Shown here piece by piece: positions 9,221-63,418 of a DNA stretch of 64,000 nt. Each line of letters opens with the position of its first letter. Within the stretch, counting starts at the first letter, position 1. The translations under genes and the position numbers were made by a program. Source of the DNA: an uncultured Clostridia bacterium (GTDB taxonomy: Bacteria > Bacillota > Clostridia > TANB77 > CAG-508); the NCBI GenBank assembly GCA_948777935.1, contig CAQDYY010000004.1, forward strand, positions 21,264-85,263, in the 5' to 3' direction. Below the pieces are notes generated by a model. It had not been told where the DNA came from. It searched no databases and was given only the letters and a program-made list of their open reading frames with translations.

Positions 9221-9303
9221 TGGTGTCGATGGTGGGAATCGAACCCACATGGTTTCCCGCAGGTTTTTGAGACCTGTGCGTATACCAATTTCGCCACATC
9301 GAC
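9221..9303 (-). tRNA. tRNA-Leu (anticodon CAA), type-II tRNA with long variable arm
   Basis: reverse complement GTCGATGTGGCGAAATTGGTATACGCACAGGTCTCAAAAACCTGCGGGAAACCATGTGGGTTCGATTCCCACCATCGACACCA; acceptor stem 7/7 complementary; anticodon loop CTCAAAA; T-loop TTCGATT; 3' end ~100 nt from int. Confidence 0.85.
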
Positions 9304-13104: not shown

Positions 13105-13400
13105 ATCACAAAAAAATGATTCATACAATTTCAGAATCATTTTTTTCATTGTATACAACAAAAACCCCGCCTTAGCCGTCATTCTCAAGAGATTTTACGG
13201 ACCTGTACTCACACAGGTGGGTGCTTACCTAAATACTCCTGGGTTTCTTACATTCAGTAAGCATACACGCCATATTTAGAGGTCGGCTCCCAATTCCAAA
13301 ACTTGTAGGTTCTAAAATATCTTGTTTGTCGTACTACGCAGGGATTTTAAGACTGTAAGAATCTTTTTGTGGTTTCCACCACTTACGAATTCTTAAATTC
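13105..13400 (-). other. long 5' leader / candidate structured RNA upstream of the 764-aa gene; begins with R3-family hairpin motif
   Basis: 5' end GAATTTAAGAATTCGTAAGTGGTGGAAACCACAAA (R3 motif, stem GTGGT/ACCAC); several further hairpins (CCTGTGTGAGTACAGG; GCTTAC…GTAAGC). Confidence 0.35.
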
Positions 13401-13600
13401 TTTTCTTCTATTTACTTTGTATATTTATATTATCATATGAAAACATATTTTTTCAAATATTGCTTTTTGTTGTTTTTATCCTTTAAACCTATTTTAATTT
13501 GTTTATCTTTAGTTTATATATTATACTCTATATTATTCACATTATTTTAAATGTTGCATAAGTTTTCTTAATTTGATAAAATATTAATTAATGTTTTGTG

Positions 13601-13630: not shown

Positions 13631-13635
13631 ATGTT

Positions 13636-15413: not shown

Positions 15414-16616
15414 TTATTCTTCTCTTTCTTTTTGTATATCTTTTCTAATTTCTTTGTATTCTTTTTTATTTGTTTGCTCATTTCGGCTTAATTTTCCTAC
15501 TATTTTAGTTGTTTCTTCTAAATGTTTTTGTACTTTCTTTTCTTTTTTTGTTAATTCTAATGGTTTTGGTTCTACTTCTTCTAAATTAGGAAAGTTCATA
15601 TGTGCTTTTATTGGGATAAATACTGGCTCTTTTTCTGCCTTTTTATACATATATGGATCAATCTCAATTGCTACATTTAAATAATTAATGGCATTTTCCT
15701 TTTCTCCACGAAGCATACATATTTTAGCTAAATTATAGTATGCTTTTGGCTCTAATAGGTTGTCTGCTAATGCATTCATAAAGTATTTTTCTGCTTCATC
15801 TAAATCGTTATATATAAAACTAATTTGTCCTAAACTATAATAAGAATTGTAAAGAAGTGTGTTAATTTCTGCTGCTTTTTCGTAACAAATTTTTGCATTT
15901 TGGAAATCGTTTAACATTGTATATACCATTCCCATATTGTAATATAGTTCATAACTTGTTGGATTATATTTTAATGCTTCATTATACATATTTGCAGCTT
16001 CCTTATAACGTTCTTGTTCACAGTATATATCTCCTAAAAGCTCTGTTGCTTCTATCATATCTGGCTTTTTACGTAATAAGTTTTCTAACATTTCTGATGC
16101 TTCTTGCTTTTTATCTAATTCATTTAAAAGATACGATATTTGATAATATGAGTTATAATCTTTTTTGTTAATATCTATTACTTGTACATATTCGTCTATT
16201 GCTTTTCTCATTCCGCCTTCTTTTTCATAAATTTTAGCTAGCATTTTATGTCCTAAATAACTTTCTGGATATTTTGTTACTAACTTTATTAAAAAGTTTT
16301 TGCTAAGCTTGTTATTATTAAAGAATGTAGCAATTTTACTAAGTGTAATGTATATAAGTTCTGAAAAATTTACATTTTTAAATTCTATATAAATAATTAC
16401 TGCTGGAATTATAACAGAAATTAAATAAATAAGTATTCTTATAAATGTATTTATTTTCCATCTAAATATAATTTCTATGAAATTTATTGCAATTCCAAGT
16501 GCTTGTAAACAAAGAACTACAACATAGTTTGTATCATTTTTCTTAATCATTTTAAAGAACATGATAACAAATAAGGAAAATGCTAATACATTAAATATAA
16601 TTTTTTCTGCTAACAT
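15414..16616 (-). CDS. membrane-anchored tetratricopeptide (TPR) repeat protein
   Basis: N-terminal TM helices followed by multiple TPR-like repeats (AxxYxxA/LG motifs). Confidence 0.7.
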   Translation of the reverse strand: MLAEKIIFNVLAFSLFVIMFFKMIKKNDTNYVVVLCLQALGIAINFIEIIFRWKINTFIRILIYLISVIIPAVIIYIEFKNVNFSELIYITLSKIATFFNNNKLSKNFLIKLVTKYPESYLGHKMLAKIYEKEGGMRKAIDEYVQVIDINKKDYNSYYQISYLLNELDKKQEASEMLENLLRKKPDMIEATELLGDIYCEQERYKEAANMYNEALKYNPTSYELYYNMGMVYTMLNDFQNAKICYEKAAEINTLLYNSYYSLGQISFIYNDLDEAEKYFMNALADNLLEPKAYYNLAKICMLRGEKENAINYLNVAIEIDPYMYKKAEKEPVFIPIKAHMNFPNLEEVEPKPLELTKKEKKVQKHLEETTKIVGKLSRNEQTNKKEYKEIRKDIQKEREE

Positions 16617-16706
16617 GATTTTCCCCTTTCTTTTTGTTTATGTACCTATTTTATGACATTTTTTTAAAAAAGTCCATAGTATTAGCAAAATTTAGAATAA
16701 CTTGTT

Positions 16707-16967
16707 TAATTATTCAATGCTTTTTTGAAAACATCTCTATATGAATAATTTTGTAAGAACCCTCCGTCAGTGCTTCGCACTGCCAGCCACTGCATAAGAT
16801 ATCTGTAATGCTCACTAACGTTCGCTAACAGCTATCTTAACCTCCCTTGAGTAAAGGAGGCTTTTCTCTACATTTTTAAATAAACTATTCTAGTCTAAAA
16901 CAGTAGAGTAAAGGCCCCTTTATTTAAGGGGGCTGTCGTTCGTAAGAACGACTGGGGGTTCTAATAT
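16707..16967 (+). repeat. R2 family structured repeat, copy 1 (~250 nt multi-hairpin element)
   Basis: near-identical to 36127-36380 and reverse-complement of 61381-61590; closing stem AGAACCCTCC/GGGGGTTCT; internal hairpins with UUCG/GNRA-type loops. Confidence 0.7.
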
Positions 16968-17065
16968 ACGCAACATTTTGCCTTTAAGGCTTTGAATAAT
17001 TACTAACTTGCTTAATATATTACCCTATGCTATAATACAAAAAAAAAGAATTAGGAGTTAATTTT

Positions 17066-17627
17066 ATGAGAATTGGAATTGATATTGATGATGTTATTAC
17101 TGATACTTCTTTTGCTATGAAGGATTATGTAATGAAATATGATAAAGATGGAGAAATACAGGAACATATGGTAGATGTAATGCGTGGCGACCCTTCTACA
17201 CCTAATGTTTATAAATTTTGTTTAGATAATTATCTTAAAATTTTTAAAGCTACAAAAGTAAAAGAAAATGCAAGTGAAGTAATTCGGCCGTTTTATTGAA
17301 AATGGACATGATGTTTATATTGTTACTGCAAGAGGAGAAGAAAGAGAATTATTTAAGGGAACTGAAGATTTTACCATAAACTATTTAGAATCAAACAATA
17401 TCCCCTATTCAAAAATATTGTTTAACTGTATAGATAAAGCTTCTATATGTAAAGAAAACAATATTGATTTACTAGTAGATGATTCTATTAAGCATTGTGA
17501 GGCAGTACATAACGAAAATATAAAAAGTATATTGTTTACTTCTGTAGTTAATAAAAATCTTCCCACACAGATTGAACGAGTTGATAATTGGTTAGAACTA
17601 GAAGAAAAAATAAATGGAATGAAATAG
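17066..17627 (+). pseudogene. HAD-superfamily 5'(3')-deoxyribonucleotidase-like (NT5C/YorS-like), split by a frameshift near 17290
   Basis: 'MRIGIDIDDVITDT' DxD HAD motif I; C-terminal part 'IENGHDVYIVTARGE…' continues in a different frame. Confidence 0.6.
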
Positions 17628-21974: not shown

Positions 21975-22005
21975 AGTGTAATCCTTTCTAAATACTAAAT
22001 AATAA

Positions 22006-22058
22006 GGGCACAGTGGTGTCATGTCCATAGATGTATTCCCACAAACGGTGCCCCTACA
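22006..22058. repeat. R1 palindromic repeat unit (orientation A)
   Basis: GGGCACAGTGGTGTCATGTC…GTATTCCCACAAACGGTGCCCCTACA. Confidence 0.75.
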
Positions 22059-22072
22059 TTCTTCTTTTCTCA

Positions 22073-25643: not shown

Positions 25644-27026
25644 CTAAAATTCGACTTTTTCTTGCAACCATGTATTTAAATCACTAATTTTTACTCTTAC
25701 TTGTTCCATTGTGTCTCTATCACGTATAGTTACAGTGTCATCTTCTAATGTATCAAAATCTATTGTTACACAATATGGTGTTCCTATTTCATCTTCTCTT
25801 CTATAGCGCTTTCCTATTGAACCTGATTCATCATAATCACACATAAACCTCTTAGAAAGGCTAGTATATACCTCTTCTGCTTTTTTAGATAATTTTTTAG
25901 ATAGTGGTAATACTGCTACTTTATATGGTGCAAGTGCTGGATGTAAATGTAGCACAATTCTTGTATCATCTTCTGCTATTTTTTCTTCTTCATAGCTATT
26001 ACATAAAAATGCAAGTGCAACACGGTCACATCCAAGAGATGGCTCTATACAATATGGTATGTATTTTTCATTTGTTTCTGGATCTAAATAGCTTAAATCT
26101 TCCTTAGAATGGTTTGCATGCTGTGTTAAATCATAATCTGTTCTATCTGCAATTCCCCATAATTCTCCCCATCCAAATGGGAAATCAAATTCAATATCTG
26201 TTGTTGCTGCACTGTAGAAAACAAGTTCTTCTTTTGAGTGATCTCTTAAACGTATATTTTCTTCTTTCATACCTAAATCAATTAAGAATTTTTTACAGTA
26301 ATCTTTCCAATATGCATGCCACTCTAAATCTGTTCCTGGTTTACAGAAAAACTCTAATTCCATTTGTTCAAATTCTCTTGTTCTAAAAGTAAAATTTCCT
26401 GGTGTAATTTCATTACGAAATGCTTTACCAATTTGTGCAATTCCCATTGGTAATTTTCTTCTTGTTGTTCTTAATACATTTTTAAAATTAACAAAAATTC
26501 CTTGTGCTGTTTCTGGTCTTAAATATAACTGTGTAGTTGAATCTTCTGTTACTCCTTGGAATGTTTTAAACATTAAATTGAATTTTCTAATGTCAGTAAA
26601 GTTTTCTTTTCCACAATTTGGACATGAAATATGATTGTTTTTAATAAATTCAACCATTTCTTCATCTTTCATTCCATCTGCAATCATATCATTTCCATTA
26701 TCATGTGCCCATTCTTCTATTAATTTATCTGCTCTATGTCTTGTTTTACATTCTTTACAATCTATTAATGGATCACTAAATCCCCCTACATGCCCTGATG
26801 CTACCCATGTTTCTGGGTTCATTAAAATAGCAGCATCTAAGCCAACATTATACCTACTTTCTTGTACGAACTTTTTCATCCATGCCTTTTTAATATTGTT
26901 TTTTAATTCCACTCCTAGTGGTCCATAATCCCATGAATTTGCAAGCCCTCCATAAATTTCTGAGCCAGGATACACATATCCTCTTGCCTTACATAAATTT
27001 ACCATAGTTTCCATTGAATCTAACAT
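25644..27026 (-). CDS. glyQS: glycine--tRNA ligase (alpha2 homodimeric type)
   Basis: '[26 protein letters not shown]' class-II GlyRS signature; full length. Confidence 0.95.
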
Positions 27027-27083: not shown

Positions 27084-27743
27084 TTATTTCTTTTCTTCTT
27101 GCTCTTTTTTTCTAGTTAATTCGTTTTCATATCCTGTTACTGTAATCATTGTTACAAGTATATATATAAGAATTGCAACAGGTATGGCGTATACTCCTAC
27201 TGGAATTCTTAAAATTTGAATTATACTTGCAAATACTGCTTCTGATACAATTAATCTAAGTAATAATGTAATTATTACTTTAAATGCACCTAATTTTAAA
27301 TAACGAATTCCTAAATATGCCAATATAATTATAGTAGTAATAACTATTGGAGCAATATATGGTTTTATTATATCTCTTATACGATAATGTGGTATAGTCA
27401 TGGTTGTTACATTACTATCTATTTCTTCTATTTCATACTTTTCTTTTACTTTGTCTTTTAAAACTGTTAGTTCTTCATCATTTAATTCTTTTATATTAAT
27501 TGCTATGGAATCATTAAATGTTTCGATATTTTGATATTTAATTTCTTTATTTTTAAATACATCTTTTACAATTTGCTTCATATCTTCCACATTAAATTCT
27601 TTTCCAATATAAACATCAATTCTTGTATGTTCTGAATATTCTAAGGAGAAATTTGTTTTCCATATACATGTTACAATTATTCCCACAATTATAATTAAAA
27701 CTGCTATTAGATAAATAATTTTTGGATTTTTTATTTTTTCCAT
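27084..27743 (-). CDS. SecF-like membrane protein (divergent, short)
   Basis: N-terminal TM, extracytoplasmic domain, C-terminal TM bundle; in operon with SecD-like gene. Confidence 0.4.
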   Translation of the reverse strand: MEKIKNPKIIYLIAVLIIIVGIIVTCIWKTNFSLEYSEHTRIDVYIGKEFNVEDMKQIVKDVFKNKEIKYQNIETFNDSIAINIKELNDEELTVLKDKVKEKYEIEEIDSNVTTMTIPHYRIRDIIKPYIAPIVITTIIILAYLGIRYLKLGAFKVIITLLLRLIVSEAVFASIIQILRIPVGVYAIPVAILIYILVTMITVTGYENELTRKKEQEEKK

Positions 27744-27756
27744 ATTCTTCTCCTTT

Positions 27757-29139
27757 CTATTTTCTTACCTCTTTTAAATCAAATAAAAGATTCATTACAA
27801 TATAGTTATATAACATAAGTATTACTATTCCCCAAAATAGTAACATACCAATACTTGCAATAGGTAACCAATTTATAAATGTAAATACAATCGCAATTAT
27901 GCATAATGGTAATAATATACTTACATATCGTTTATATGTTTCTTTTATAATTTCTACCTTATTTCCTTCTGCTTTTTCAAATTTTCTTAATGCATATTGA
28001 AGCATTAGGAAATTTGAAACTAATATACCAATTATTGCAACTATTGCTTCTACTGATATTGTAACATTTGCATAACGAACAACTAGTAATATAATTGCCA
28101 TAAGTCCACATGTTCCTATTATAGCAAATATTCCATTTGCCCTATAACGAATACCCCAATATATAAATCCTATTACTTGAATAGCTATTATTACACACAA
28201 TACTACTTTTATATCTATATTATCGATTGATGCAGAAACATAATTATTTTCAGATAATTCATATTTGATTTTCATTACATCATTTTTAATAAGCCCTGCT
28301 ATTTGATTTGCCTGTTTTACATAGTCAGATATTTCTTCATTTGAAGTTGATGCACTTCCAATAGATAGCTCTAAGCTACCTGTTGTTATAGGTTCATCAA
28401 AATAAGTTTCTAGTAAGGTCTCATCATCTAATTTGATTGATATTTTATTTGTTGTATCATTTCCTTCTTCGTCTTTAGATGATATATATGTTCTTGTAAT
28501 ATCCTCTAATTTTTGTTTTCCTTCTTTATTAAATTCGATACTTAAATATACTCTTGTACCTGTATTTGTATTTCCATAAACTGCTGCTGCATTTTTTATA
28601 TTACTATTATCCATTAATACTTCATCTGTTTTGCTATCTTTTATTTCAAATTTTCCTAAGTAGCTAAGATTTGAAATTGCTGTATCTGTATAATTATCTT
28701 CTGGAATTGCTACAATAACTTCACCATTACTATAATTTAGTCTTAAATCATATTCACTAATTCCCATATTATCTAAACGGTTTTGCATAATTTTCTTTGC
28801 CAATTCATAATTTTTTTCATTTAATACATCTTCAGAATTTACTGGTTTATTTTCTTTAGTATATCCTTCTTTTAATGTACCATCTTCATTGGTTCCATCT
28901 GTTACTACATTTCCTTCAGCATCATATATAATTTCTTCTGTTTTATCACTAATTTTAAATTTTGCTACTCTTGCTCCACTTAAGTTCATTCCCATACTAT
29001 ATTCTGGCATTATGTTTGTCATTTTTCCTTGTTTCTTTATATAGATTCCACAAAATGAAATAAGACATATTGCAATAATTACCAAAACTGTTAATCCTTT
29101 TATTAATTTACTCTTTTTCATTATTTCCTCCTCATACAT
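27757..29139 (-). CDS. SecD-like membrane protein (divergent)
   Basis: topology (TM + large periplasmic domain + C-terminal TMs) and 'QNRLDNMGISE' resembling SecD 'RNRIDALGVSEP'. Confidence 0.45.
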   Translation of the reverse strand: MYEEEIMKKSKLIKGLTVLVIIAICLISFCGIYIKKQGKMTNIMPEYSMGMNLSGARVAKFKISDKTEEIIYDAEGNVVTDGTNEDGTLKEGYTKENKPVNSEDVLNEKNYELAKKIMQNRLDNMGISEYDLRLNYSNGEVIVAIPEDNYTDTAISNLSYLGKFEIKDSKTDEVLMDNSNIKNAAAVYGNTNTGTRVYLSIEFNKEGKQKLEDITRTYISSKDEEGNDTTNKISIKLDDETLLETYFDEPITTGSLELSIGSASTSNEEISDYVKQANQIAGLIKNDVMKIKYELSENNYVSASIDNIDIKVVLCVIIAIQVIGFIYWGIRYRANGIFAIIGTCGLMAIILLVVRYANVTISVEAIVAIIGILVSNFLMLQYALRKFEKAEGNKVEIIKETYKRYVSILLPLCIIAIVFTFINWLPIASIGMLLFWGIVILMLYNYIVMNLLFDLKEVRK

Positions 29140-29161: not shown

Positions 29162-29821
29162 TTATAATAACTTTGTATTATTAATAACTAATTCAAACCA
29201 TATTCCTAAATATTTAGCTGCATATTTACTCATCATAGTTCTATCCATAAATATTTCAAAATAGTCTAATACTGGGCATATTTCTGTATCTATATTAATA
29301 TTTAATATTACTTTTCTTTCTTCTTTATCTAAATCTAGTTTTGTATTTGTTACTGCATAATTTACTTTATCATGTTTTCCAAATGTAGCAATATTCTTAT
29401 TAACTACCCTATCTCTATGAACATCAGATTTATCTGCTAGAATAAGTGCTGCTGAAATATCACTAACAGCTGTTCCTGTTTGTTCATCATGGTTTCCTAT
29501 TGCCATCATAATTTCAATCCTATCTTTATCACACATTCCCATATCTTTTAAAATGTTATATGCGAGTAATGCTCCAGACTGTGCATGGTCAACACGGTTT
29601 ACGCAATTTCCAATATCATGTAAATATCCTGCAATTTTTGCAAGTTCAATTCTCTCTTCACTATAATCAAATATTCTTAAAATGTCTGCCGCTCTTTTTG
29701 AAACAATACTAATATGCCTTATTGAATGTTCCGTAAAACCTAATACATTTAATTGTTTCTGGGTTCCTTCAATTAAGGCTTGAACTTCCTTATTATTTTT
29801 CACATCCTCTAATGTTATCAT
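29162..29821 (-). CDS. HD-domain phosphohydrolase
   Basis: 'HSIRHISIVSKRA…AGYLHDIGN' HD motif. Confidence 0.75.
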   Translation of the reverse strand: MITLEDVKNNKEVQALIEGTQKQLNVLGFTEHSIRHISIVSKRAADILRIFDYSEERIELAKIAGYLHDIGNCVNRVDHAQSGALLAYNILKDMGMCDKDRIEIMMAIGNHDEQTGTAVSDISAALILADKSDVHRDRVVNKNIATFGKHDKVNYAVTNTKLDLDKEERKVILNINIDTEICPVLDYFEIFMDRTMMSKYAAKYLGIWFELVINNTKLL

Positions 29822-29959
29822 TCGTTACCTCCGTAAAGTTTTTTCTTTTAATGTACCACTTTTCGTATTAATTTATACGCTATAGGTATTCTATAACAAA
29901 AAAGAACACTTTTCAAGTGTTCTTTTAATATATTTTTGATATTTTCATCATGCAAAGTA

Positions 29960-31934: not shown

Positions 31935-32652
31935 CTAACAAGTTAGTTTTAGTTTCATAGAATTTAAAATTTTCTTTTCAATCCTAGATACCTGTACTTG
32001 TGTTATTCCTAAAACTTTTGCTACTTCTGATTGTGTTTTGTCTTTATAAAATCTTAATAAAATGATTTGTTTTTCTCTATCATCTAAATTTTCTATCAAT
32101 TGTTTTAAAGCAATTTTGTCTACAATATTATTTGATTCGTCTTTTGCACATGGTATTTTATCTATAACATTTCTACTATCATCTGAAGAATTCTCTTCAT
32201 ATATAGAAGAAACTGGTTTTAGTGAGTCCATTGCATATGTTATTTCTTCTTTTGGCATTTTTAATGTGTTTGAAATTTCTAAAATTGAAATTTCTTCCCC
32301 TGTTTTTGCCAAATATTGTTTTTGTAATTCTAGTATCTTAATAGCCAATTCTTTTGTGGATCTACTTACTTTTATCATTCCATCATCTCTTATATATCTT
32401 TTTATTTCTCCTAATATATATGGTACTGCATATGTTGAAACTTGTACTTCAAAACTTGTGTCAAATCGCTTCATTGCTTTAATAAAGCCCATACATCCTA
32501 TTTGGTATAAGTCATCTGTTTCATAACCTCTACCAGTAAAACGTTTTACAATGTTCCATATTAGTCCCTTGTTGTTTTCAACAAGTCTTCCCATTGCATC
32601 ATTGTCTCCGTGCCTGAGCTTTTTTAATGTCTAATAAACTATTTTCGTACAT
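31935..32652 (-). CDS. sigF: sporulation sigma factor SigF; N-terminal ~20 codons in a different frame (1-nt insertion)
   Basis: 'YETDDLYQIGCMGFIKAMKRFD…' sigma-70 regions 2-4; MYENSLLDIKKAQ then frameshift (cagGcac) into HGDNDAMGRLVENN…. Confidence 0.9.
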
Positions 32653-34980: not shown

Positions 34981-36021
34981 CTATTCTTCTTCGTCACTAG
35001 ATAATTCTTCTTCACCTAAACTTTTTTCAAAAGCTTTCGCAAAGTTATCTCTTATTTTTTGTTCTACTTCTGCCATTACTTCTGGATTATCTAATAGGTA
35101 TTGTTTTACATTTTCTCTACCTTGTCCAATTCTGTTTCCATTATAACTAAACCATGAACCACTTTTTTCGATAATATCTAAGTTAACACCCATATCTAAT
35201 ATGTTTCCTTCTTTAGATATACCTTTTCCATATACTATATCAAATTCAGCTTCTCTAAATGGTGGAGCTACTTTATTTTTTACAACTTTTACCCTTGCTC
35301 TACTTCCAACAACTTCTCCATCTTGCTTAATATTTTCTGTTTTTCTAATGTCCATACGAACAGATGCATAGAATTTTAAAGCTCTTCCTCCTGTTGTTGT
35401 TTCTGGATTTCCAAACATAACTCCAATTTTTTCTCTTAATTGATTTATAAATATTAGTACTGTTTTTGATTTATTAATTGCTCCTGCTAATTTTCGTAAT
35501 GCTTGTGACATAAGCCTTGCTTGTAATCCCATATGAGAATCTCCCATATCGCCATCTATTTCTGCTTTTGGAACTAATGCTGCAACAGAGTCTACAACAA
35601 TAACATCTAACGCTCCACTTCTTATTAAGTTTTCAGTAATTTCTAGTGCCTGTTCTCCTGTATCTGGTTGTGATACTATTAAGTTATCTATATCTACTCC
35701 TAAATGTTTTGCATAAACTGGGTCTAATGCATGTTCTGCATCTATAAATGCTGCTTCTCCTCCTGCTTTTTGTGCTTCTGCTACTACATGTAAAGCAAGA
35801 GTAGTTTTTCCTGAAGATTCTGGCCCATAAATTTCAATAATTCTTCCACGTGGTACTCCACCTATTCCTAATGCAATATCTAATCCTAATGCACCTGTTG
35901 GAATTGCTTCTATATTCATAGCTTGAAACTCTCCTAGTTTCATAACAGATCCTTTTCCAAATTGTTTTTCAATTTGTGACATTGCTGCTTCTAATGCTTT
36001 TTTCTTTTCTGAATTTTCCAT
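34981..36021 (-). CDS. recA: recombinase A
   Basis: '[13 protein letters not shown]' Walker A and full RecA core. Confidence 0.97.
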
Positions 36022-36126
36022 TTTCTTTTTTTCCTCCTTTAATTTATAAAACGTTTGTTTGTAAATGTATTATCACATTACTTTTTTCATTTGTCAATAC
36101 TTTTTTTAAAAATTTTTTACTGCCTA

Positions 36127-36380
36127 TAATTATTTAATGCTTTTTGAAAACATTTCTATATGATTAATTTTGTAAGAACCCTCCGTCACCCTTCGGGTGC
36201 TAGCCACTGCATAAGATATCTGTAATGCTCACTAACGTTCGCTAACAGCTATCTTAACCTCCCTTAGATAAAGGAGGCTTTTCTCTACTTTTCAAAATTA
36301 ACTATACAAGTTTAAAATTATAGAGTAATGGCCCCTTTACTTAAGGGGGCTGTCGCGTTAGCGACTGGGGGTTCTAATAT
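36127..36380 (+). repeat. R2 family structured repeat, copy 2
   Basis: aligns end-to-end with 16707-16967; hairpin CACCCTTCGGGTG replaces CAGTGCTTCGCACTG (compensatory). Confidence 0.7.
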
Positions 36381-36406
36381 TCATAATTTGAACAATAATT
36401 ATTTAA

Positions 36407-38005
36407 TTACTGCCTATACCAAGTACCAATTCCTTCATATACATTATAGCTATTTGGATTCAATTCCCCTATTAAATTAGGACTATATACTAATGTATTT
36501 TTACTATAATATAAAAACACATATGGCATTTCCTCTTCGTAAATTTGAACTATTCTACTATATTTTTCTCTTAAAACTTTTTCATCTTGTATATTTTTAA
36601 CATCATTTATTAAGCTTCTCATTTCTTCATTATTAAAATTAGCTATATTATTTTCACCAAAATATGGAGATAAATCCGGACTAATCCCACTGTATACACC
36701 TGTTAAAATCATATCATAATTCTTATTTTGTAGATAATTTTGATACTGGCTATCAGATACTTTCCTTATATTAATTTCAATTCCAAATTCTGATAATGTC
36801 TGTTTAATATTTTCTGCTACTTGCACTCTTGCTTCATTACTACTATTTACAACTAAATCAAATCTTAACTTTTGAGTTCTGTAATCTTTAACTCTTTGCC
36901 ATATCTTTTTATTATACATCCAACCTGCTTGTCCTAAAATACTTCTTGCTTTTTCCTCATTTGTTTCATAGATTACTTTTTTATCTTCATATAAGTAACT
37001 ACCAAATTCTAATGGAAAATTAGCTTTATAATATGCTCCTTTATAAATTCCAGCTACTATATTTTCTTTATTGATTAAATATGAAATAGCCTTTCTTACT
37101 TCCACATTTGATAAAATATTTTCTTCACAATTAAAAGCAATATAATCCAAATTTCTACCATAATATTCTTTTTTATAATATCCAATTGTTCCAATATAGT
37201 CTTCTAGCTCTGTAGTTTTAGTAGTAAGTAAATCTATATTCCCTGTTTTAAATGAGTTATAAACTTCTCCCATAGATTGATATTTAATCAATTCTATTTC
37301 TTCTAATTTCGTTTCTTCTACTTCATATTTCCACCAATTATCATTTTTCTTTAATGTGATTTTTGCACTATTTTCTAATACTTTGAATCTTCCAGTTCCT
37401 ACTGGCTTGTTGTTCTTTTCAGTATTTACAAAATCTTCATTTTCATAATAGTAATGTGACATAATTGGAAAAGTTAAATTGTATTCAAAAAATGGTACTT
37501 CCTCGTTTAAATTAATTTTAATTGTATTTTTGTCTATTACTTCAACACTAATTACTTTTTCTACATTATAAGCATAAATAGAATTTGCTCCTATTTCTTT
37601 TAATCTATCTATTGTAAATTGAACATCTTTTGCAACTAGTTCGTTTCCATCATGCCATTTTACGTTTTCTTTTAATTTTATAACATATGATGTATTACTT
37701 TGTTTAGTCCACTCTTTTGCAAGGCACATTGCTATTTTATTGTCACTTGTTATATCTAGTAATGGCTCATATATAAGCCTTGAAATATCTTGTATATTTT
37801 GATTTTTACTTAAAATTGGATTTATCGTATCAAAAGATATAATTGGTGCCCTAATATTTGTAATTATTTTTGTTTCTTCCTCAATTTCCTCAATTACAGA
37901 TTTATTTGGTTCTTCATTTTTTTGCCCATAAATTAAATAACTTGCGCAGCCAATTAAGACTACTACAATTATAATAAATATATATTTTATAATATTAGAT
38001 TTCAA
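36407..38005 (-). CDS. ABC transporter substrate-binding protein, family 5 (peptide/nickel type)
   Basis: N-terminal signal/TM anchor; SBP_bac_5-like sequence. Confidence 0.75.
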   Translation of the reverse strand: MKSNIIKYIFIIIVVVLIGCASYLIYGQKNEEPNKSVIEEIEEETKIITNIRAPIISFDTINPILSKNQNIQDISRLIYEPLLDITSDNKIAMCLAKEWTKQSNTSYVIKLKENVKWHDGNELVAKDVQFTIDRLKEIGANSIYAYNVEKVISVEVIDKNTIKINLNEEVPFFEYNLTFPIMSHYYYENEDFVNTEKNNKPVGTGRFKVLENSAKITLKKNDNWWKYEVEETKLEEIELIKYQSMGEVYNSFKTGNIDLLTTKTTELEDYIGTIGYYKKEYYGRNLDYIAFNCEENILSNVEVRKAISYLINKENIVAGIYKGAYYKANFPLEFGSYLYEDKKVIYETNEEKARSILGQAGWMYNKKIWQRVKDYRTQKLRFDLVVNSSNEARVQVAENIKQTLSEFGIEINIRKVSDSQYQNYLQNKNYDMILTGVYSGISPDLSPYFGENNIANFNNEEMRSLINDVKNIQDEKVLREKYSRIVQIYEEEMPYVFLYYSKNTLVYSPNLIGELNPNSYNVYEGIGTWYRQ

Positions 38006-38944
38006 TTAGTTTTCCTCCATTGTTAATTTTTCTAGTTCCTCTTTGGTCAGTTCTGTAATTTCTATAATTTTTTCTAATTCTATATTCATTTTAAGCAGCT
38101 TTTTTGCTACTTCTACTTTTGCCTCTTTTATACCTTCTTCTCTACCTTCTTCTCTACCTTCTTTTCTTCCTTCTTTTCTTCCTTCTTTTCTTCCTTCTTT
38201 TCTTCCTTCCTCTCTACCCTCTTCTCTTCCAACTACTCTTGCTGCATATTTAGCTTGGTTTTCATCTAATATTGCTTTTCTTCTTAATTCAACAAGTCTC
38301 ATTAATTCTTCGTCACTACTAATCTCTTCTAATTTTTCCATAGCCTCTTGTATTTCTTTATTTGTCTTCATAATTTCAGATACCTCCTTTTGATTTGGAT
38401 TATCTAAAAATGTAATCCAATCTATTAATGCATTTTTACTTCCTTTTGCTTTCATTTCTCTTACTTTTGGTATCTCTATTATATGTATTTCTAATACATC
38501 TGTCAACTTTATATTGTTATTATCTTCTCTTATATGCCAAATTGTATGTGCTTCTTCTATATCCATTAATTTTTTTAGGTTATAATCTAATATTGCTATT
38601 GATATTGTTTGATTTAAATCTTTATATTTATCTCCTACTAACATCTGTTGAGAATATGCTTTACCATTATAATACAATATCCTTTTTTCAATATCTTTAT
38701 TATCTGATAACTGAACTTCAATATTACATATTACTCCATCATCTAGTATCGCAATTAAGTCGAGTATTCCCATTTTATCTTTTGCATATTCTCTTAATAA
38801 ATTTTTATTTTTATCTAATTCTATCTTTTGTATATTTTTTCCTATAATCTCTGATATAAATGCTTTTGTTATTGTTTCATTTCCTTTTCTAAATAGTGCT
38901 TGAAATACAATGTCCATTTTAGGTGGTAATAATTCTTTTTCCAT
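38006..38944 (-). CDS. Rpn/YhgA-like PD-(D/E)XK nuclease (second paralog) with internal (GREE/GRKE)n low-complexity repeat
   Basis: 'ILDLIAILDDGVICNIEVQ' core; C-terminal YhgA-like helices; repeat GREEGREEGRKEGRKEGRKEGRKEGREEGREEG. Confidence 0.75.
   Translation of the reverse strand: MEKELLPPKMDIVFQALFRKGNETITKAFISEIIGKNIQKIELDKNKNLLREYAKDKMGILDLIAILDDGVICNIEVQLSDNKDIEKRILYYNGKAYSQQMLVGDKYKDLNQTISIAILDYNLKKLMDIEEAHTIWHIREDNNNIKLTDVLEIHIIEIPKVREMKAKGSKNALIDWITFLDNPNQKEVSEIMKTNKEIQEAMEKLEEISSDEELMRLVELRRKAILDENQAKYAARVVGREEGREEGRKEGRKEGRKEGRKEGREEGREEGIKEAKVEVAKKLLKMNIELEKIIEITELTKEELEKLTMEEN
38140..38235. repeat. perfect 12-bp tandem repeat (ccttcttttctt x4, flanked by degenerate copies) inside the Rpn gene
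   Basis: repeat unit = 4 codons (GRKE); in-frame length variation possible. Confidence 0.8.
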
Positions 38945-44689: not shown

Positions 44690-44765
44690 TTTATCACCTC
44701 TCTTTTAACATAAACTATTATATATCAATATACCTTATCTGTCAAGGTATATTGTGTAAAAAAAT

Positions 44766-44818
44766 AGGGCACAGTGGTGTCATGTCTATTAAGCATTCCC
44801 TTTAAACGGTACCCATAC
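44766..44818. repeat. R1 palindromic repeat unit (orientation A)
   Basis: GGGCACAGTGGTGTCATGTC…CCCATACA; inverted partner at 46164-46215. Confidence 0.7.
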
Positions 44819-44835
44819 ATTTAATATTTTCTATT

Positions 44836-49544: not shown

Positions 49545-49670
49545 CGCCCCCGTTTATTTTTATACTGTAGGAATTTTCTCCCTGTGGGAGGAAAGCTCCG
49601 TACAGGATAAATATGCGAATTTATAGAATTTTTTTGCGGTTTCCACCGCTTAAAAATTCTTAAATTCGTT
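49545..49670 (-). other. R3-family 5' leader element (two conserved hairpins)
   Basis: GAATTTAAGAATTTTTAAGCGGTGGAAACCGC… then CTGTACGGAGCTTTCCTCCCACAGGGAGAAAATTCCTACAG; homologous to 63225-63392. Confidence 0.6.
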
Positions 49671-51198
49671 TTTTTACTAATATACTTTCTCCTGTCATTT
49701 CTTCTGGTTTTTCTAATCCCATAATATCTAGCATAGTAGGTGCTAAATCTGCTAGTTTTCCCGTTTTTAAACTTATATCATTCATTCCAACTAATACTAA
49801 TGGAACTGGATTTGTTGTGTGAGCTGTATGTGGTTCTCCTGTTTTGTAATCTATCATTTGCTCTGCATTTCCATGGTCTGCTGTAATTAATAATACTCCC
49901 TTTACTTCTTCTATAGCTTCTACTACTTTTCCTACACATTCATCAATAGTTTCTATGGCTTTTATTGCTGCTTCTAAGTTTCCAGTATGACCTACCATAT
50001 CTGGGTTTGCATAATTTAATATGATTGCATTATATTTCTTGCTTTTTATTGCTTCTAATACTTTATCTGTTACTTCATATGCACTCATTTCTGGTTTCAA
50101 ATCATATGTTTCTACTTTTGGAGATGGCACTAGAATTCTATCTTCTCCATTATATTGTTTTTCTTCCCCACCGTTAAAGAAAAATGTAACATGTGCATAT
50201 TTTTCAGTTTCTGCAATACGAAGCTGTGTTAATCCTAAACCACTTATATATTCTCCAAATGTATTGCTTAGTGCTTCTTTCTTAAATGCAACATGTACAT
50301 TTGGCATTGTTTCATCATATGGTGTCATACATACAAAATATAAATTTAATGGTTTTGTTTCAAATCCATCAAAGTCACTATCTACTAATGCTCTTGTAAT
50401 TTCTCTTGCTCTATCTGGTCTAAAGTTGTAGAATATAATAGAATCGTTTTCTTTTATTGTTGCAATTGGTGTATCTCCATTGCATATTAGAGTTGGTTCT
50501 ACAAATTCATCAAATATTTCTTTTTGGTAAGAAGCCTCAATTGCACTAATTGCTGTTTGTGCTTTTTCTCCTTCTCCATTAACTATTGCATTATAGCATT
50601 TCTGTACTCTTTCCCATCTTTTATCTCTATCCATTGCGTAAAATCTACCACTAATACTTGCAATTTTACCAATTTCTTTTTCTTTCATCTTTTCTTCTAG
50701 TTTTGTAATATACCCTTCTGCTGATGCAGGTGGTGTATCTCTTCCATCTAAAAATGCATGAACATATACATTTTCTATTCCTTTTCTTTTTGCAAGTTCT
50801 AGTAATGCATACAGATGACGAATATGGCTATGAACTCCTCCATCAGATAATAACCCCATTATGTGTAAGCTCGAATTATTTTTCTTACAGTTTTCTACTG
50901 CTTCATTAAATTCTTGTATACTAAAGAAGTCTCCATCTTCAATAGATTTCGTAATTCTTGTTAATTCTTGGTATACAATTCTTCCTGCCCCTATGTTTGT
51001 ATGACCAACTTCTGAGTTTCCCATTTGTCCATCTGGAAGACCTACATTTAATCCACTTGTATATATATCTGTTGTAGGATACATTTTCATTAGTTTATCA
51101 ATGTTTGGTGTGTTTGATAATTTTACTGCATTTCCTTTTTCATTTGTGTTTTCTCCAAATCCATCTAGAATCATTAACATAGTTAGTTTGTTTTCCAT
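49660..51198 (-). CDS. gpmI: 2,3-bisphosphoglycerate-independent phosphoglycerate mutase
   Basis: 'ILDGFG' and full-length iPGM homology. Confidence 0.95.
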
Positions 51199-51978: not shown

Positions 51979-52180
51979 AAAATCTCTCCTTTTAATTTTA
52001 GTTATACTAAATTCTTCTGTAATAGTATTAAATCCCTACGAAGAATCTCGGAGCCATAAGTGGGGACCAATAGAAACCGTCAAAATGCGCAAGCATTTTG
52101 TACAGTTCCACCCAGGAATGGCGACGGTTCGTAGGTATTTAATACTATTACCTAGAACTTATTTATACCTTATCGAAACA

Positions 52181-52232
52181 GGGCACAGTGGTGTCATGTC
52201 TTTTGGGTATTCCCACAAACGATGCCCCTACA
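52181..52232. repeat. R1 palindromic repeat unit in the pgk-tpiA spacer
   Basis: GGGCACAGTGGTGTCATGTCTTTTGGGTATTCCCACAAACGATGCCCCTACA. Confidence 0.7.
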
Positions 52233-53423: not shown

Positions 53424-53563
53424 GTTACAAACCTCCATCTAGAGTAATTTCTTACTCTAATAATATTTTTATCCATAATGCATTATATCCTATTTTGTTT
53501 TGTGCGATACCATTGTATACTAAAAAAGAATACTTTTCAAGTATTCTTTTCTAGTTTATTAAA

Positions 53564-54644: not shown

Positions 54645-54687
54645 CATTTTATACCAAAACAGAACACTTTGCAAGTGTTCTGTTTAA
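54645..54687. repeat. 43-bp direct repeat (copy 1) flanking the HEPN/MNT cassette; contains terminator-like palindrome
   Basis: CATTTTATACCAAAACAGAACACTTTGCAAGTGTTCTGTTTAA identical at 55536-55578. Confidence 0.85.
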
Positions 54688-55535: not shown

Positions 55536-55578
55536 CATTTTATACCAAAACAGAACACTTTGCAAGTGTTCTGTTTAA
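55536..55578. repeat. 43-bp direct repeat (copy 2) flanking the HEPN/MNT cassette
   Basis: identical to 54645-54687. Confidence 0.85.
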
Positions 55579-59458: not shown

Positions 59459-61342
<1,884 letters not shown>

Positions 61343-61380: not shown

Positions 61381-61590
61381 GATTCATAATGAATAAATTT
61401 CCTAAAAACCTCCAGTCAGCTTCGCTGACAGCCCCCTTAAGTAAAGGGGCCTTTACTCTACCGTTTTAGACTAGCACAGTAATTATGAAGTATAGAGAAA
61501 AGCCTCCTTTATTTAAGGGAGGTGTCTCGCGTTAGCGAGACGGTGGGTTCTTACTGCATTTATTTATATAGAGATGTTATTTTACCTCTG
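61381..61590 (-). repeat. R2 family structured repeat, copy 3 (shorter variant) in grpE-dnaK spacer
   Basis: reverse complement aligns with copies 1/2; first variable hairpin replaced by GTCTCGCTAACGCGAGAC; 3' hairpin GTCAGCGAAGCTGAC. Confidence 0.65.
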
Positions 61591-61650
61591 AACTGTTACA
61601 TTTATATAATTTAAAATTAAAAACTTTATTATTTAAAACATTTTTCATAA

Positions 61651-61701
61651 GGGCACAGTGGTGATAATCTCACGGGTATTCCCACAAACGGTGCCCCTAC
61701 A
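61651..61701. repeat. R1 palindromic repeat unit in grpE-dnaK spacer
   Basis: GGGCACAGTGGTGATAATCTCACGGGTATTCCCACAAACGGTGCCCCTACA. Confidence 0.7.
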
Positions 61702-61709
61702 TCATTTGT

Positions 61710-62192
61710 TTAATTTGCTACTACTACCATAGAATGACGTATTACCTTGTTTCCTATTTTGTAGCCCTTTCTAAATTCTTCTTTTATTTCTTTTTCACCT
61801 AGTGTGTCATCTTCTACACTGCTTACTGCTTCATGGTATTCTGGGTTAAATGTTTCTCCTACTGTTGGTATTTGTTCTACTCCTAAGTTCGATAATGTAT
61901 CTATAAGTTGTTTGTATACCATTTCTACACCTTGTTTATAGCTTTCATCCTCTGTTTTTGTAGATACTGCTTTTTCTAAGTTATCTACTACTGGCAATAT
62001 AGATGTAATTATATCTGATATTAACGAATTATATAGTGTTTCTCTTTCTTTTGAACTCCTTTTTTTGAAGTTATCAAATTCTGCCATAAGACGTTTATAT
62101 CTATCTGTCATTTCTTCTAATTCTTGTTTTGTAGAATCTTGCTCAGTCTCAATGTTTTCTTTTTTTTCTACTACTTCTTCATTTTCTTCCAT
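61710..62192 (-). CDS. grpE: nucleotide exchange factor GrpE
   Basis: acidic N-terminus, 'RYKRLMAEFDNFKKR' coiled coil, C-terminal beta domain. Confidence 0.9.
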   Translation of the reverse strand: MEENEEVVEKKENIETEQDSTKQELEEMTDRYKRLMAEFDNFKKRSSKERETLYNSLISDIITSILPVVDNLEKAVSTKTEDESYKQGVEMVYKQLIDTLSNLGVEQIPTVGETFNPEYHEAVSSVEDDTLGEKEIKEEFRKGYKIGNKVIRHSMVVVAN

Positions 62193-63224: not shown

Positions 63225-63392
63225 CCGTTTTTTTATACTGTAGGAATTTTCACCCAGTTGGTGAAAAGCTCCTTACAGTATAATTATGCGGATTTATAGA
63301 ATTACTAACGTATAACTTATCCGTACGCATTAAAAATGCTACGGTTAAGAAATCTTTGCGGTTACCACCGCTTAGAAATTCTTAAATCCGTT
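63225..63392 (-). other. R3-family leader element within the hrcA operon 5' UTR (between CIRCE and hrcA start)
   Basis: GGATTTAAGAATTTCTAAGCGGTGGTAACCGC… and CTGTAAGGAGCTTTTCACCAACTGGGTGAAAATTCCTACAG. Confidence 0.6.
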
Positions 63393-63418
63393 TAGCACTT
63401 GAAAGTTTCGATTGCTAA
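63392..63418. promoter_or_regulatory. CIRCE operator (HrcA binding site)
   Basis: TTAGCACTT-GAAAGTTTC-GATTGCTAA versus consensus TTAGCACTC-N9-GAGTGCTAA. Confidence 0.75.

Follow-up and report, generated by a model that had tools for sequence, protein, structure and literature searches.

The 64,000 nucleotides analysed here (the window) belong to an uncultured Clostridia bacterium (GTDB lineage Bacteria; Bacillota; Clostridia; TANB77; CAG-508; NCBI GenBank assembly GCA_948777935.1, contig CAQDYY010000004.1, positions 21,264 to 85,263 of the forward strand) and carry a palindromic repeat, R2, in three intergenic spacers. The copies were first placed at 16707-16967 (+), 36127-36380 (+) and 61381-61590 (-). 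Copy 1 occupies a divergent spacer with the gene of a tetratricopeptide repeat (TPR) protein on one side and a plus-strand open reading frame (ORF) starting at 17066 on the other. Copy 2 is located between recA (34981-36021, minus strand) and the 3' end of a solute-binding-protein gene, and copy 3 between grpE (61710-62192, minus strand) and dnaK (59459-61318, minus strand), on the sense strand of that transcription unit. We propose with moderate confidence that R2 is the non-autonomous form, without a gene of its own, of a small palindromic DNA element that is mobile, is associated with genes of the DUF559 family and is mobilised by the encoded nuclease. R2 resembles a form left by internal deletion, which is how a miniature inverted-repeat transposable element (MITE) usually relates to its parent.

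The three copies align across their entire structured core. The two most conserved blocks have exactly three matches each in the window when up to three mismatches are allowed and none in shuffled sequence. The core is closed by the stem AGAACCCTCC/GGGGGTTCT, which is weakened in copy 3 (CCCACC/GGAGG), and contains two conserved hairpins, CCTCCCTTnnnTAAAGGAGG and GGCCCCTTTAYTTAAGGGGGC. A CTCTAC/GTAGAG stem is present in all copies, imperfectly in copies 2 and 3, and two hairpins of variable sequence were confirmed as well. A reading made earlier from the letters alone (the sequence-only reading) had described three copies with these stems, in a divergent spacer, beside recA and between grpE and dnaK, and it was right on each of these points. 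Minimum free energy folds of copies 1, 2 and 3 have z-scores of -9.3, -6.2 and -6.2 against shuffled controls. Copies 1 and 2 extend beyond the 3' ends first given for them, to 17003 and 36406, and copy 3, which has a partial conserved leader to about 61578, is without the 55-nt hairpin found as an insertion in their 5' halves. Elements range from 150 to 293 nt, and copy 1 contains no ORF of 50 aa or more. The features of each copy are listed in Table 1.

The building block of R2 is a module of about 52 nt that consists of a tail P (TAAGAACCCCC, read outward), a short variable hairpin B and an invariant hairpin A. In the 3' module, hairpin A (GGCCCC-TTTAYTTAA-GGGGGC) is followed by hairpin B (GTC-NNN-loop-NNN-GAC) and the tail TGGGGGTTCT; a full element is made of two inverted modules flanking a short middle (CTCTAC-loop-GTAGAG). 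A covariance model built from 22 solo 3' modules only also matches the 5' halves on the opposite strand, identifying them as diverged inverted 3' halves. In copies 1 and 2 this match is interrupted by the 55-nt hairpin between A and B. Scanned over the window with filters off, the model found no modules besides the six of the three copies, and no element consisting of outer arms only was found there. All full copies have the terminal inverted repeats (TA)AGAACCCYCC...GGRGGGTTCT(TA). Copies 1 and 2 have additional outer ends, TAATTATTCAAWGC; such AT-rich outer arms with inverted ends are seen in the species of the window and a few others. In most metagenome-assembled genomes (MAGs) homology ends exactly at TAAGAACCC and GGGTTCTTA, with no duplication visible. 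The conserved 55-nt hairpin (AAGATATCTGT...ACAGCTATCTT) has two CTAAC motifs and lies between hairpins B and A of the 5' module, at 16785-16839 and 36203-36257 of the window. It also occurs in at least six elements of other MAGs, and at orthologous sites it can be present or absent (L027 versus L085, L089 versus L079; here and below, L-numbers denote individual sampled loci and P-numbers individual DUF559 proteins).

The repeat is widely dispersed. Its 25-nt core pattern was found in more than 93 stretches, all from MAGs of uncultured Clostridium or Clostridia representing at least 10 species-level genomes, with at least 16 stretches in one MAG and at least 13 in another. With the one-module covariance model, 170 modules were identified in 767 kb from at least 10 Clostridia MAG species, and 51 additional metagenome contigs carry modules. 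The solo module is the commonest form: about 75 solo 3' modules were found, along with about 26 full elements and a few minimal P-B-P palindromes (TAAGAACCCCCAGTC-N9-12-GACTGGGGGTTCTTA). Solos are solely of the 3' type and retain a variable length of the middle (5 to 26 nt or more); they may be partial copies or deletion products. They are located near stop codons, at a median of 12-36 nt from the end of the upstream gene in both orientations, and their orientation relative to the flanking genes is mixed (42 versus 32). No insertion target motif was found beyond GGGTTCT(T)(A), the flanks having background composition. Two scans of viral contigs gave no match, and a phage origin was rejected.

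Stem complementarity is maintained to a high degree among these copies. Across 129 distinct modules, 97.9% of cells are paired. Hairpin A is nearly invariant and contains a T.G wobble in 128 of the 129 modules, each on its own strand. Hairpin B exists in 44 sequence variants with at least 15 different Watson-Crick stems; its three variable pairs show 60, 58 and 19 double changes, and its covariation score was reached by none of 500 shuffles and by no slid register, which confirms the extensive stem covariation of the sequence-only reading. That reading had also named UUCG and GNRA loops. The loops of hairpin B are mostly GAA, GTA or GATA closed by C-G, and what was taken for 'TTCG' loops in the 5' arm are triloops of sequence TTC, complementary to the GAA/GTA loops of the opposite arm. 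As a class, C(GNA)G triloops form classic extra-stable DNA mini-hairpins rather than typical RNA tetraloops. Since, in addition, the strand-specific features of the two halves (the T.G wobble and the GNA loops) lie on opposite strands, the pattern fits hairpins that matter in DNA. The covariation is real, yet it is covariation among DNA repeat copies, and we infer that the hairpins act in DNA and not in RNA. The asymmetry of G.T versus A.C in hairpin B provides too few non-Watson-Crick cells to discriminate between the two. Orthologous copies share hairpin B in 22 of 30 pairs. In L073 and L079, with flanks 99.3% identical, the B stems are entirely different, so that some of the variation arose by replacement or conversion and not by stepwise compensatory mutation.

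Searches for RNA-level signatures returned little. Over the full window at gathering thresholds only a 6S RNA and one tRNA passed in Rfam, and at E up to 10 over 16600-17100 only chance microRNA-type hairpins far below threshold appeared. A known Rfam family (HEARO/omega-RNA-type, riboswitch or small RNA) was rejected for want of a relevant match, and these scans bear out the earlier failure to assign R2 to a family. A sigma-70 promoter scan found no site common to the three window copies, the best nearby promoter being that of recA, and a promoter of R2's own was rejected. The sole terminator-like site, seen in copies 1 and 3, reads along the antisense strand of hairpin A3; given this and the mixed orientation of the solos, an intrinsic terminator was also rejected.

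Copies 1 and 2 are missing from the corresponding sites of relatives. Copy 1 is absent from L050, a 95% identical relative, and is bounded by a 13-bp duplication in the window: L050 reads aataacttgtttaat followed by atattaccc, and the window reads TAACTTGTTTAAT, 293 nt of element and TAACTTGCTTAAT. Copy 2 has a 12-bp duplication, TTACTGCCTATA, on both sides, and the orthologous spacer in L015 has a single ATTGTCTATA. The empty sites in relatives and the direct repeats of 11-13 bp around the two copies therefore mark them as mobile DNA insertions. No clean empty sites were found for core-only copies, the orthologous spacers being too diverged or holding other palindromes. From one MAG to the next, a given intergenic site may be empty or occupied by a solo module, a full element or a different palindrome. 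L050, from a CANOGC MAG, holds its own long-form R2 at 4712-5000, where synteny with the window breaks; it aligns from window position 13634 onward and the other side does not, which suggests a rearrangement at a repeat copy.

In the sampled 767 kb, no TnpB, IscB, reverse transcriptase, Y1, DDE or serine transposase was found. An all-against-all BLAST found no multi-copy ORF there, only orthologous housekeeping clusters. A scan of 931 ORFs for the HUH and Tyr motifs yielded no Y1 candidate, only two nadD-like false positives, and a partner of the Y1 or RAYT (repetitive extragenic palindromic (REP)-associated tyrosine transposase) type was rejected on this basis.

A different gene is associated with the modules. 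Inverted module pairs 0.45-3.5 kb apart were examined for enclosed genes. Two of them, L011 and L064, contain one intact ORF of 118-124 aa within arms that are perfectly inverted, hairpin B and the inner CTCTAC/GTAGAG included. A third, L067, has a disrupted ORF and arms with unlike B stems. The outer flanks of the three loci are unrelated. The enclosed ORF belongs to DUF559 (PF04480; 104 bits against a cutoff of 20.6, E 4e-30 in Pfam). By tblastn (52-74% identity), a DUF559 gene of 115-125 aa is present between or beside modules in six module-bearing loci. The gene of L141 and L094 takes the position of the R2 middle, with a P-B-A arm on one side and an A-B-P arm on the other, and that of L140 is placed between two elements.

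The association is also seen when the search starts from the protein. In a protein database search, homologues with a length of 115-135 aa numbered 640, and no name among them was more specific than 'endonuclease domain-containing protein'. Seven homologues were retrieved by exact protein sequence, independent of any repeat, and all seven have modules of the P-B-A design within about 160 nt of the DUF559 gene. Six of the seven have modules that the R2-derived model detects, at 14-50 bits; the modules of P0062 are too diverged for it and were recognised by eye. Elsewhere in the seven loci the model has few matches, and by a rough estimate the chance of so close a match in all lineages is about 1e-6. 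Modules flank both sides of the gene in P0014, a 55-nt perfect inverted pair is found in P0044, and modules are also present in P0050, P0114 and P0116. The P0062 gene, from Ruminococcus, is preceded by a full element that has no gene and followed by three or four solos in tandem. Contigs of uncultured Ruminococcus (L151-L154) show a head-to-tail solo array 3' of the DUF559 gene (AAAGCCTCCCCTGAAAGGGGAGGGGGACCGCCGCCAGGCGGTGGAGGRGT..., period about 67 nt) of three or four units, the number varying between samples. P0088 occurs in two copies on one contig (L155 and L156; JAUMVO010000003.1, a Clostridiaceae MAG), in the mnmE-mnmG and mnmG-rsmG spacers of one operon. The two units of 470 nt are 100% identical, and neither shows a target duplication; in each, the gene has two hairpins on either side, and the order begins with GAATCCCCTC and ends with GGTGGGATTC.

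The DUF559 protein has the features of a nuclease. Twenty-eight homologues retain D51 (IVDFYC), E62-x-D64-G65, H68, R80, R93 and N96; of these, D51, E62, D64, H68, R80 and R93 are listed as invariant and include residues of catalytic type. The C-terminal tails of homologues often read into the adjoining module. The nearest solved structure by sequence is 3HRL, an uncharacterised Neisseria protein (E 4e-15). An AlphaFold model (predicted local distance difference test score, pLDDT, 87) matches 3HRL and then the catalytic domain of I-Bth0305I (E 5e-4, template modelling score, TM, 0.63-0.75), and Vsr more weakly; by this model, the DUF559 partner is predicted to be a Vsr-like PD-(D/E)XK endonuclease. 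In a survey of programmed inversions, DUF559 is among the gene classes enriched between invertible repeats (PMC9881135), which agrees with the module-flanked DUF559 genes found here. A literature search found no description linking DUF559 to REP- or MITE-like repeats, and the association appears to be undescribed.

Taken as the partner of R2, the DUF559 nuclease would recognise the modules as extruded or single-stranded DNA hairpins, with sequence as the cue in hairpin A and tail P and shape as the cue in hairpin B, and would nick or cut at the modules. Host replication and repair would then copy or move the element into intergenic DNA, mostly just past stop codons, and gene-less copies, including the three in the window, would be mobilised in trans. 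In this way the nuclease probably mobilises the repeats. Several observations weigh against such a scheme. The 64-kb window has no DUF559 gene. The modules are arranged differently from gene to gene, with P arms that face outward in L011, L064, L141 and P0088 but inward in L140 and P0116. Target duplications are seen neither at core-only copies nor at the P0088 unit, and in this species the long form has duplications of 11-13 bp, as DDE transposases typically make; the long form may have been moved by a different enzyme, or the core may be nested in, or carried by, a second element. We know of no nuclease of about 120 aa that performs strand transfer, and mobility would therefore have to rely on host functions. 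The scheme does not predict that solos are of the 3' type only and vary in their 5' extent. Finally, the covariation could stem in part from template-switch 'quasipalindrome correction' or copy replacement and not from selection.

In the main rival explanation, DUF559 is a selfish endonuclease of the homing type and a parasite of the repeats. It would target, or land in, the modules or the element middle, and the repeats themselves would have spread otherwise, for example through a DDE transposase that acts in trans on their outer inverted ends. The fold of the protein is closest, among characterised proteins, to the catalytic domain of I-Bth0305I; copies with the gene are rare (6 loci, compared with about 170 modules); the modules have no fixed arrangement around it; and the long-form copies of the window, with their target duplications and AT-rich outer inverted ends, look like DDE-mobilised MITEs. 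However, no transposase gene or multi-copy ORF was found in the 767 kb rich in modules, most of the gene-less copies ought to have been filled if homing were efficient, and the duplicated P0088 unit, both arms of which are 100% identical, looks like joint movement of arms and gene. We consider homing, whether at the modules or at the middle, unlikely.

It is less probable still that the modules are cis elements useful to the host, such as terminators, stabilisers of mRNA 3' ends or sites for nucleoid proteins, and that their spread is incidental. Their position close to stop codons in both orientations, the T-run that follows the antisense hairpin A in a terminator-like manner in copies 1 and 3, and the retention of many sites between species would suit such a role. 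But purifying selection against promoter disruption would also leave copies near stop codons, orientation is not fixed, modules of other DUF559 lineages do not have the T-run, presence or absence differs between 95%-identical genomes, and many copies are located within operons (rimP-nusA, grpE-dnaK), where termination would be harmful.

Least probable of all, and very unlikely, is that R2 encodes a structured non-coding RNA (ncRNA) or is mobile at the RNA level, its hairpins being selected for RNA function: the folds are very stable (z -6 to -9), covariation is strong and includes G.U-type wobbles, copy 3 lies on the sense strand of its transcription unit, and the variable 5' truncation of solos with long target duplications superficially resembles retrotransposition, but there is no Rfam match, no promoter common to the three copies and no reverse transcriptase in the sampled DNA (where a DNA nuclease partner is seen), solos occur in either orientation, the strand-specific features of the two halves are on opposite strands, and GNA triloops are stable in DNA mini-hairpins. 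The sequence-only reading had leaned towards this class. Its view of R2 as a dispersed non-autonomous mobile element and not a gene-specific cis-regulator holds; the discrete structured ncRNA gene or RNA-level element is not supported, in view of the lack of a common promoter, the mixed solos, the inverted halves and the target-site duplications. It had suggested TnpB, IscB or reverse transcriptase as partners, none of which was seen in the sampled DNA, where a DUF559 nuclease gene was found instead. A MITE with an autonomous protein-coding partner, which it had named among the outcomes contrary to its proposal, is largely what the element copies enclosing a DUF559 gene represent.

Table 1. 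Coordinates of R2 copies and their parts in the window.
Feature	Coordinates	Strand	Remarks
Copy 1, left direct repeat (target-site duplication) TAACTTGTTTAAT	16698..16710	.	L050 has the sequence once, then atattaccc (empty site)
Copy 1, entire long-form element	16711..17003	+	293 nt
Copy 1, outer AT-rich inverted ends	16707-16724; 16985-17002		TAATTATTCAATGC; its complement
Copy 1, 5' module	16754..16864	-	Covariance-model match 26.3 bits with 55-nt insertion
Copy 1, tail P5	16756-16765		AGAACCCTCC
Copy 1, variable hairpin B5	16768-16782
Copy 1, inserted 55-nt hairpin (OPT)	16785-16839
Copy 1, hairpin A5	16841-16860
Copy 1, middle	16866..16908	+	CTCTAC 16866-16871, AT-rich loop, GTAGAG 16903-16908; place of the DUF559 gene in gene-bearing relatives
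Copy 1, 3' module	16910..16964	+	Covariance-model match 68.7 bits, E 4e-25
Copy 1, hairpin A3	16913-16933		With T.G wobble
Copy 1, variable hairpin B3	16935-16952		GTCGTTC-GTAA-GAACGAC
Copy 1, tail P3	16953-16962		TGGGGGTTCT
Copy 1, right direct repeat TAACTTGCTTAAT	17004..17016	.	One mismatch to left repeat
Copy 2, left direct repeat TTACTGCCTATA	36117..36128	.	Orthologous site in L015: single ATTGTCTATA
Copy 2, entire long-form element	36129..36406	+	278 nt
Copy 2, 5' module	36173-36281	-	Minus-strand match, holds 55-nt insertion
Copy 2, 3' module	36327-36377
Copy 2, right direct repeat TTACTGCCTATA	36407..36418	.	Overlaps stop codon of solute-binding-protein gene 36407-38005(-)
Copy 3, core element	61403..61553	-	No 55-nt insertion; grpE-dnaK spacer
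Copy 3, 3' module	61403-61454	-	76.4 bits
Copy 3, 5' module	61499-61553	+	50.5 bits, E 1e-17

The window contains other repeats and features. A second dispersed palindromic repeat, GGGCACAGTGGTG...TATTCCCACAAACGGTGCCCCTAC, is found at 21996-22060, 44757-44821, 52176-52214 and 61639-61703, the last copy directly adjoining R2 copy 3; its complement begins with GTAG, as in REP elements. The same family is nested in R2 middles of other MAGs (L008, L075/L076), and related GTAG-headed palindromes, for example GTAGGGGCGAGCATTGCTCGTCC and GTAGGGGTCGATG..CATCGACCCCTAC, are present at R2-type sites in L084, L089 and L026. Another family (AGAATYTTTTTGYGGTTWCCACCRCTTA...) occupies 13358-13407, 49557-49674 and 63230-63396. 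It is preceded in two places by a conserved 74-nt segment with hairpin potential, and one copy immediately adjoins the 6S RNA gene (13160-13347, minus strand, 85 bits). The tRNA, with a long variable arm, is located at 9224-9303 (minus strand). A terminator-like 43-nt hairpin element (AAAACAGAACACTTTGCAAGTGTTCTGTTT) occurs at 29887-29929, 53511-53553, 54645-54687 and 55536-55578, two of the four copies being identical. A 12-nt tandem repeat (CTTCTTTTCTTC-like, at least 8 units) at 38110-38229, within a 312-aa ORF (38006-38944, minus strand), encodes a low-complexity stretch rich in Glu and Lys. Tandem ORFs of equal length, 460 aa (25644-27026, 27757-29139) and 219 aa (27084-27743, 29162-29821, 31935-32594), suggest duplicated gene cassettes.

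As an ncRNA candidate R2 would be ordinary, and it calls for caution in covariation-based ncRNA screens of repeat-rich MAGs. R2 repeats mark synteny breakpoints, as in L050, and sit in core operons (grpE-dnaK, rimP-nusA); they are therefore relevant to MAG assembly and to models of gene expression in these gut bacteria. If the DUF559 nuclease does mobilise its modules, the gene-bearing unit, at about 470-600 bp, would be a minimal mobile element of a new kind.

R2 belongs with the repeat families of the REP/MITE kind, as a new member or variant. Bacterial MITEs built of modular hairpins include the Correia elements of Neisseria, BOX, RUP and SPRITE of pneumococci and the mobile insertion cassettes of Bacillus. 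Such elements are 100-300 nt long, non-coding, multi-copy, intergenic and modular, have terminal inverted repeats and would form hairpins if transcribed. R2, likened to them by description and not by sequence, is likewise small, non-coding, multi-copy and dispersed with terminal inverted repeats, and copies 1 and 2 have target duplications. In contrast to these MITEs, solo half-elements dominate and one hairpin has a hypervariable stem of strict complementarity. The relatives of R2 with the same arms, which would be the autonomous form, enclose a DUF559 nuclease, and this candidate partner is no recognised transposase. The elements derived from IS200/IS605 (PATE, the omega-RNA region of TnpB) may differ from R2: they have conserved subterminal hairpins on one strand, and the end hairpins of R2 are on opposite strands. 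R2 has no Rfam match of the omega-RNA type, and the sampled loci gave no Y1 candidate or multi-copy ORF.

The DUF559 model superposes on the catalytic domain of I-Bth0305I and more weakly on Vsr, and acidic and His residues are conserved. Vsr nicks at T:G mismatches, and hairpin A of R2 holds an invariant T.G pair; this pair is, however, absent from the modules of other DUF559 lineages. Unlike I-Bth0305I and Vsr, the DUF559 partner is a free-standing protein of about 120 aa with no extra DNA-binding domains, found outside introns and inteins, and unlike homing endonucleases it is tied to dispersed repeats at many loci and not to a single homing site.

A parallel exists in Escherichia coli. The only DUF559 gene of E. 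coli K-12, ycjD, adjoins fabI (NC_000913.3 1351040-1351760). Its 3' end runs into a GC-rich palindrome, a second full copy of which is located about 150 nt downstream, and the ycjD 3' end is partly duplicated between these palindromic copies. The 47-nt repeat has a median of 15 copies per genome across all 5426 complete E. coli genomes, 3378 of which have ycjD; ycjD fragments are not dispersed in these genomes, being found in 1-2 places each. We take the repeat to be 'BoxC', first noted beside envM (=fabI), and to our knowledge it has no assigned function or mobiliser. Like R2, it is a dispersed palindromic repeat paired with a small DUF559 gene; unlike R2, it consists of one long imperfect hairpin, in which an A/B/P layout is not evident.

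A further close comparison is with the REP sequences of Proteobacteria, their hairpin-forming doublets (REPINs) and RAYT. R2 shares with them short palindromic units that are intergenic and occur as singlets and as inverted doublets folding into long hairpins, compensatory stem changes, repeat families specific to lineages, and a small nuclease-type gene flanked by cognate repeats. There are also differences. A REP is a single palindrome of 20-40 nt with a terminal GTAG, whereas the R2 unit has two hairpins and a tail in about 52 nt, with GTAG only as the inner GTAGAG of full copies; the TGTC/CGTC at the foot of R2 hairpin B is a resemblance only. The gene linked to R2 is a DUF559 PD-(D/E)XK nuclease and not a Y1 HUH transposase, long-form copies have target duplications, and the hosts are Clostridia, a survey of GTAG/CGTC-tagged repeats making no mention of Firmicutes or Clostridia (PMC3733652). 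R2 with DUF559 may thus be regarded as loosely analogous to REPIN/RAYT. Tentatively, and short of an even chance, DUF559 proteins could be the dedicated nucleases of a widespread class of hairpin-module repeats in gut Clostridia and possibly in E. coli (YcjD with BoxC-type repeats). The same tentative standing applies to a REPIN/RAYT-like partnership in which a Vsr-fold nuclease replaces the HUH transposase, recognises the folded hairpins and drives their copying or maintenance. Were the link functional, it would offer a testable function for a large domain-of-unknown-function family, a candidate enzyme for orphan palindromic repeats and, beside REPIN/RAYT, a second and mechanistically different lifestyle of a repeat with a single nuclease.

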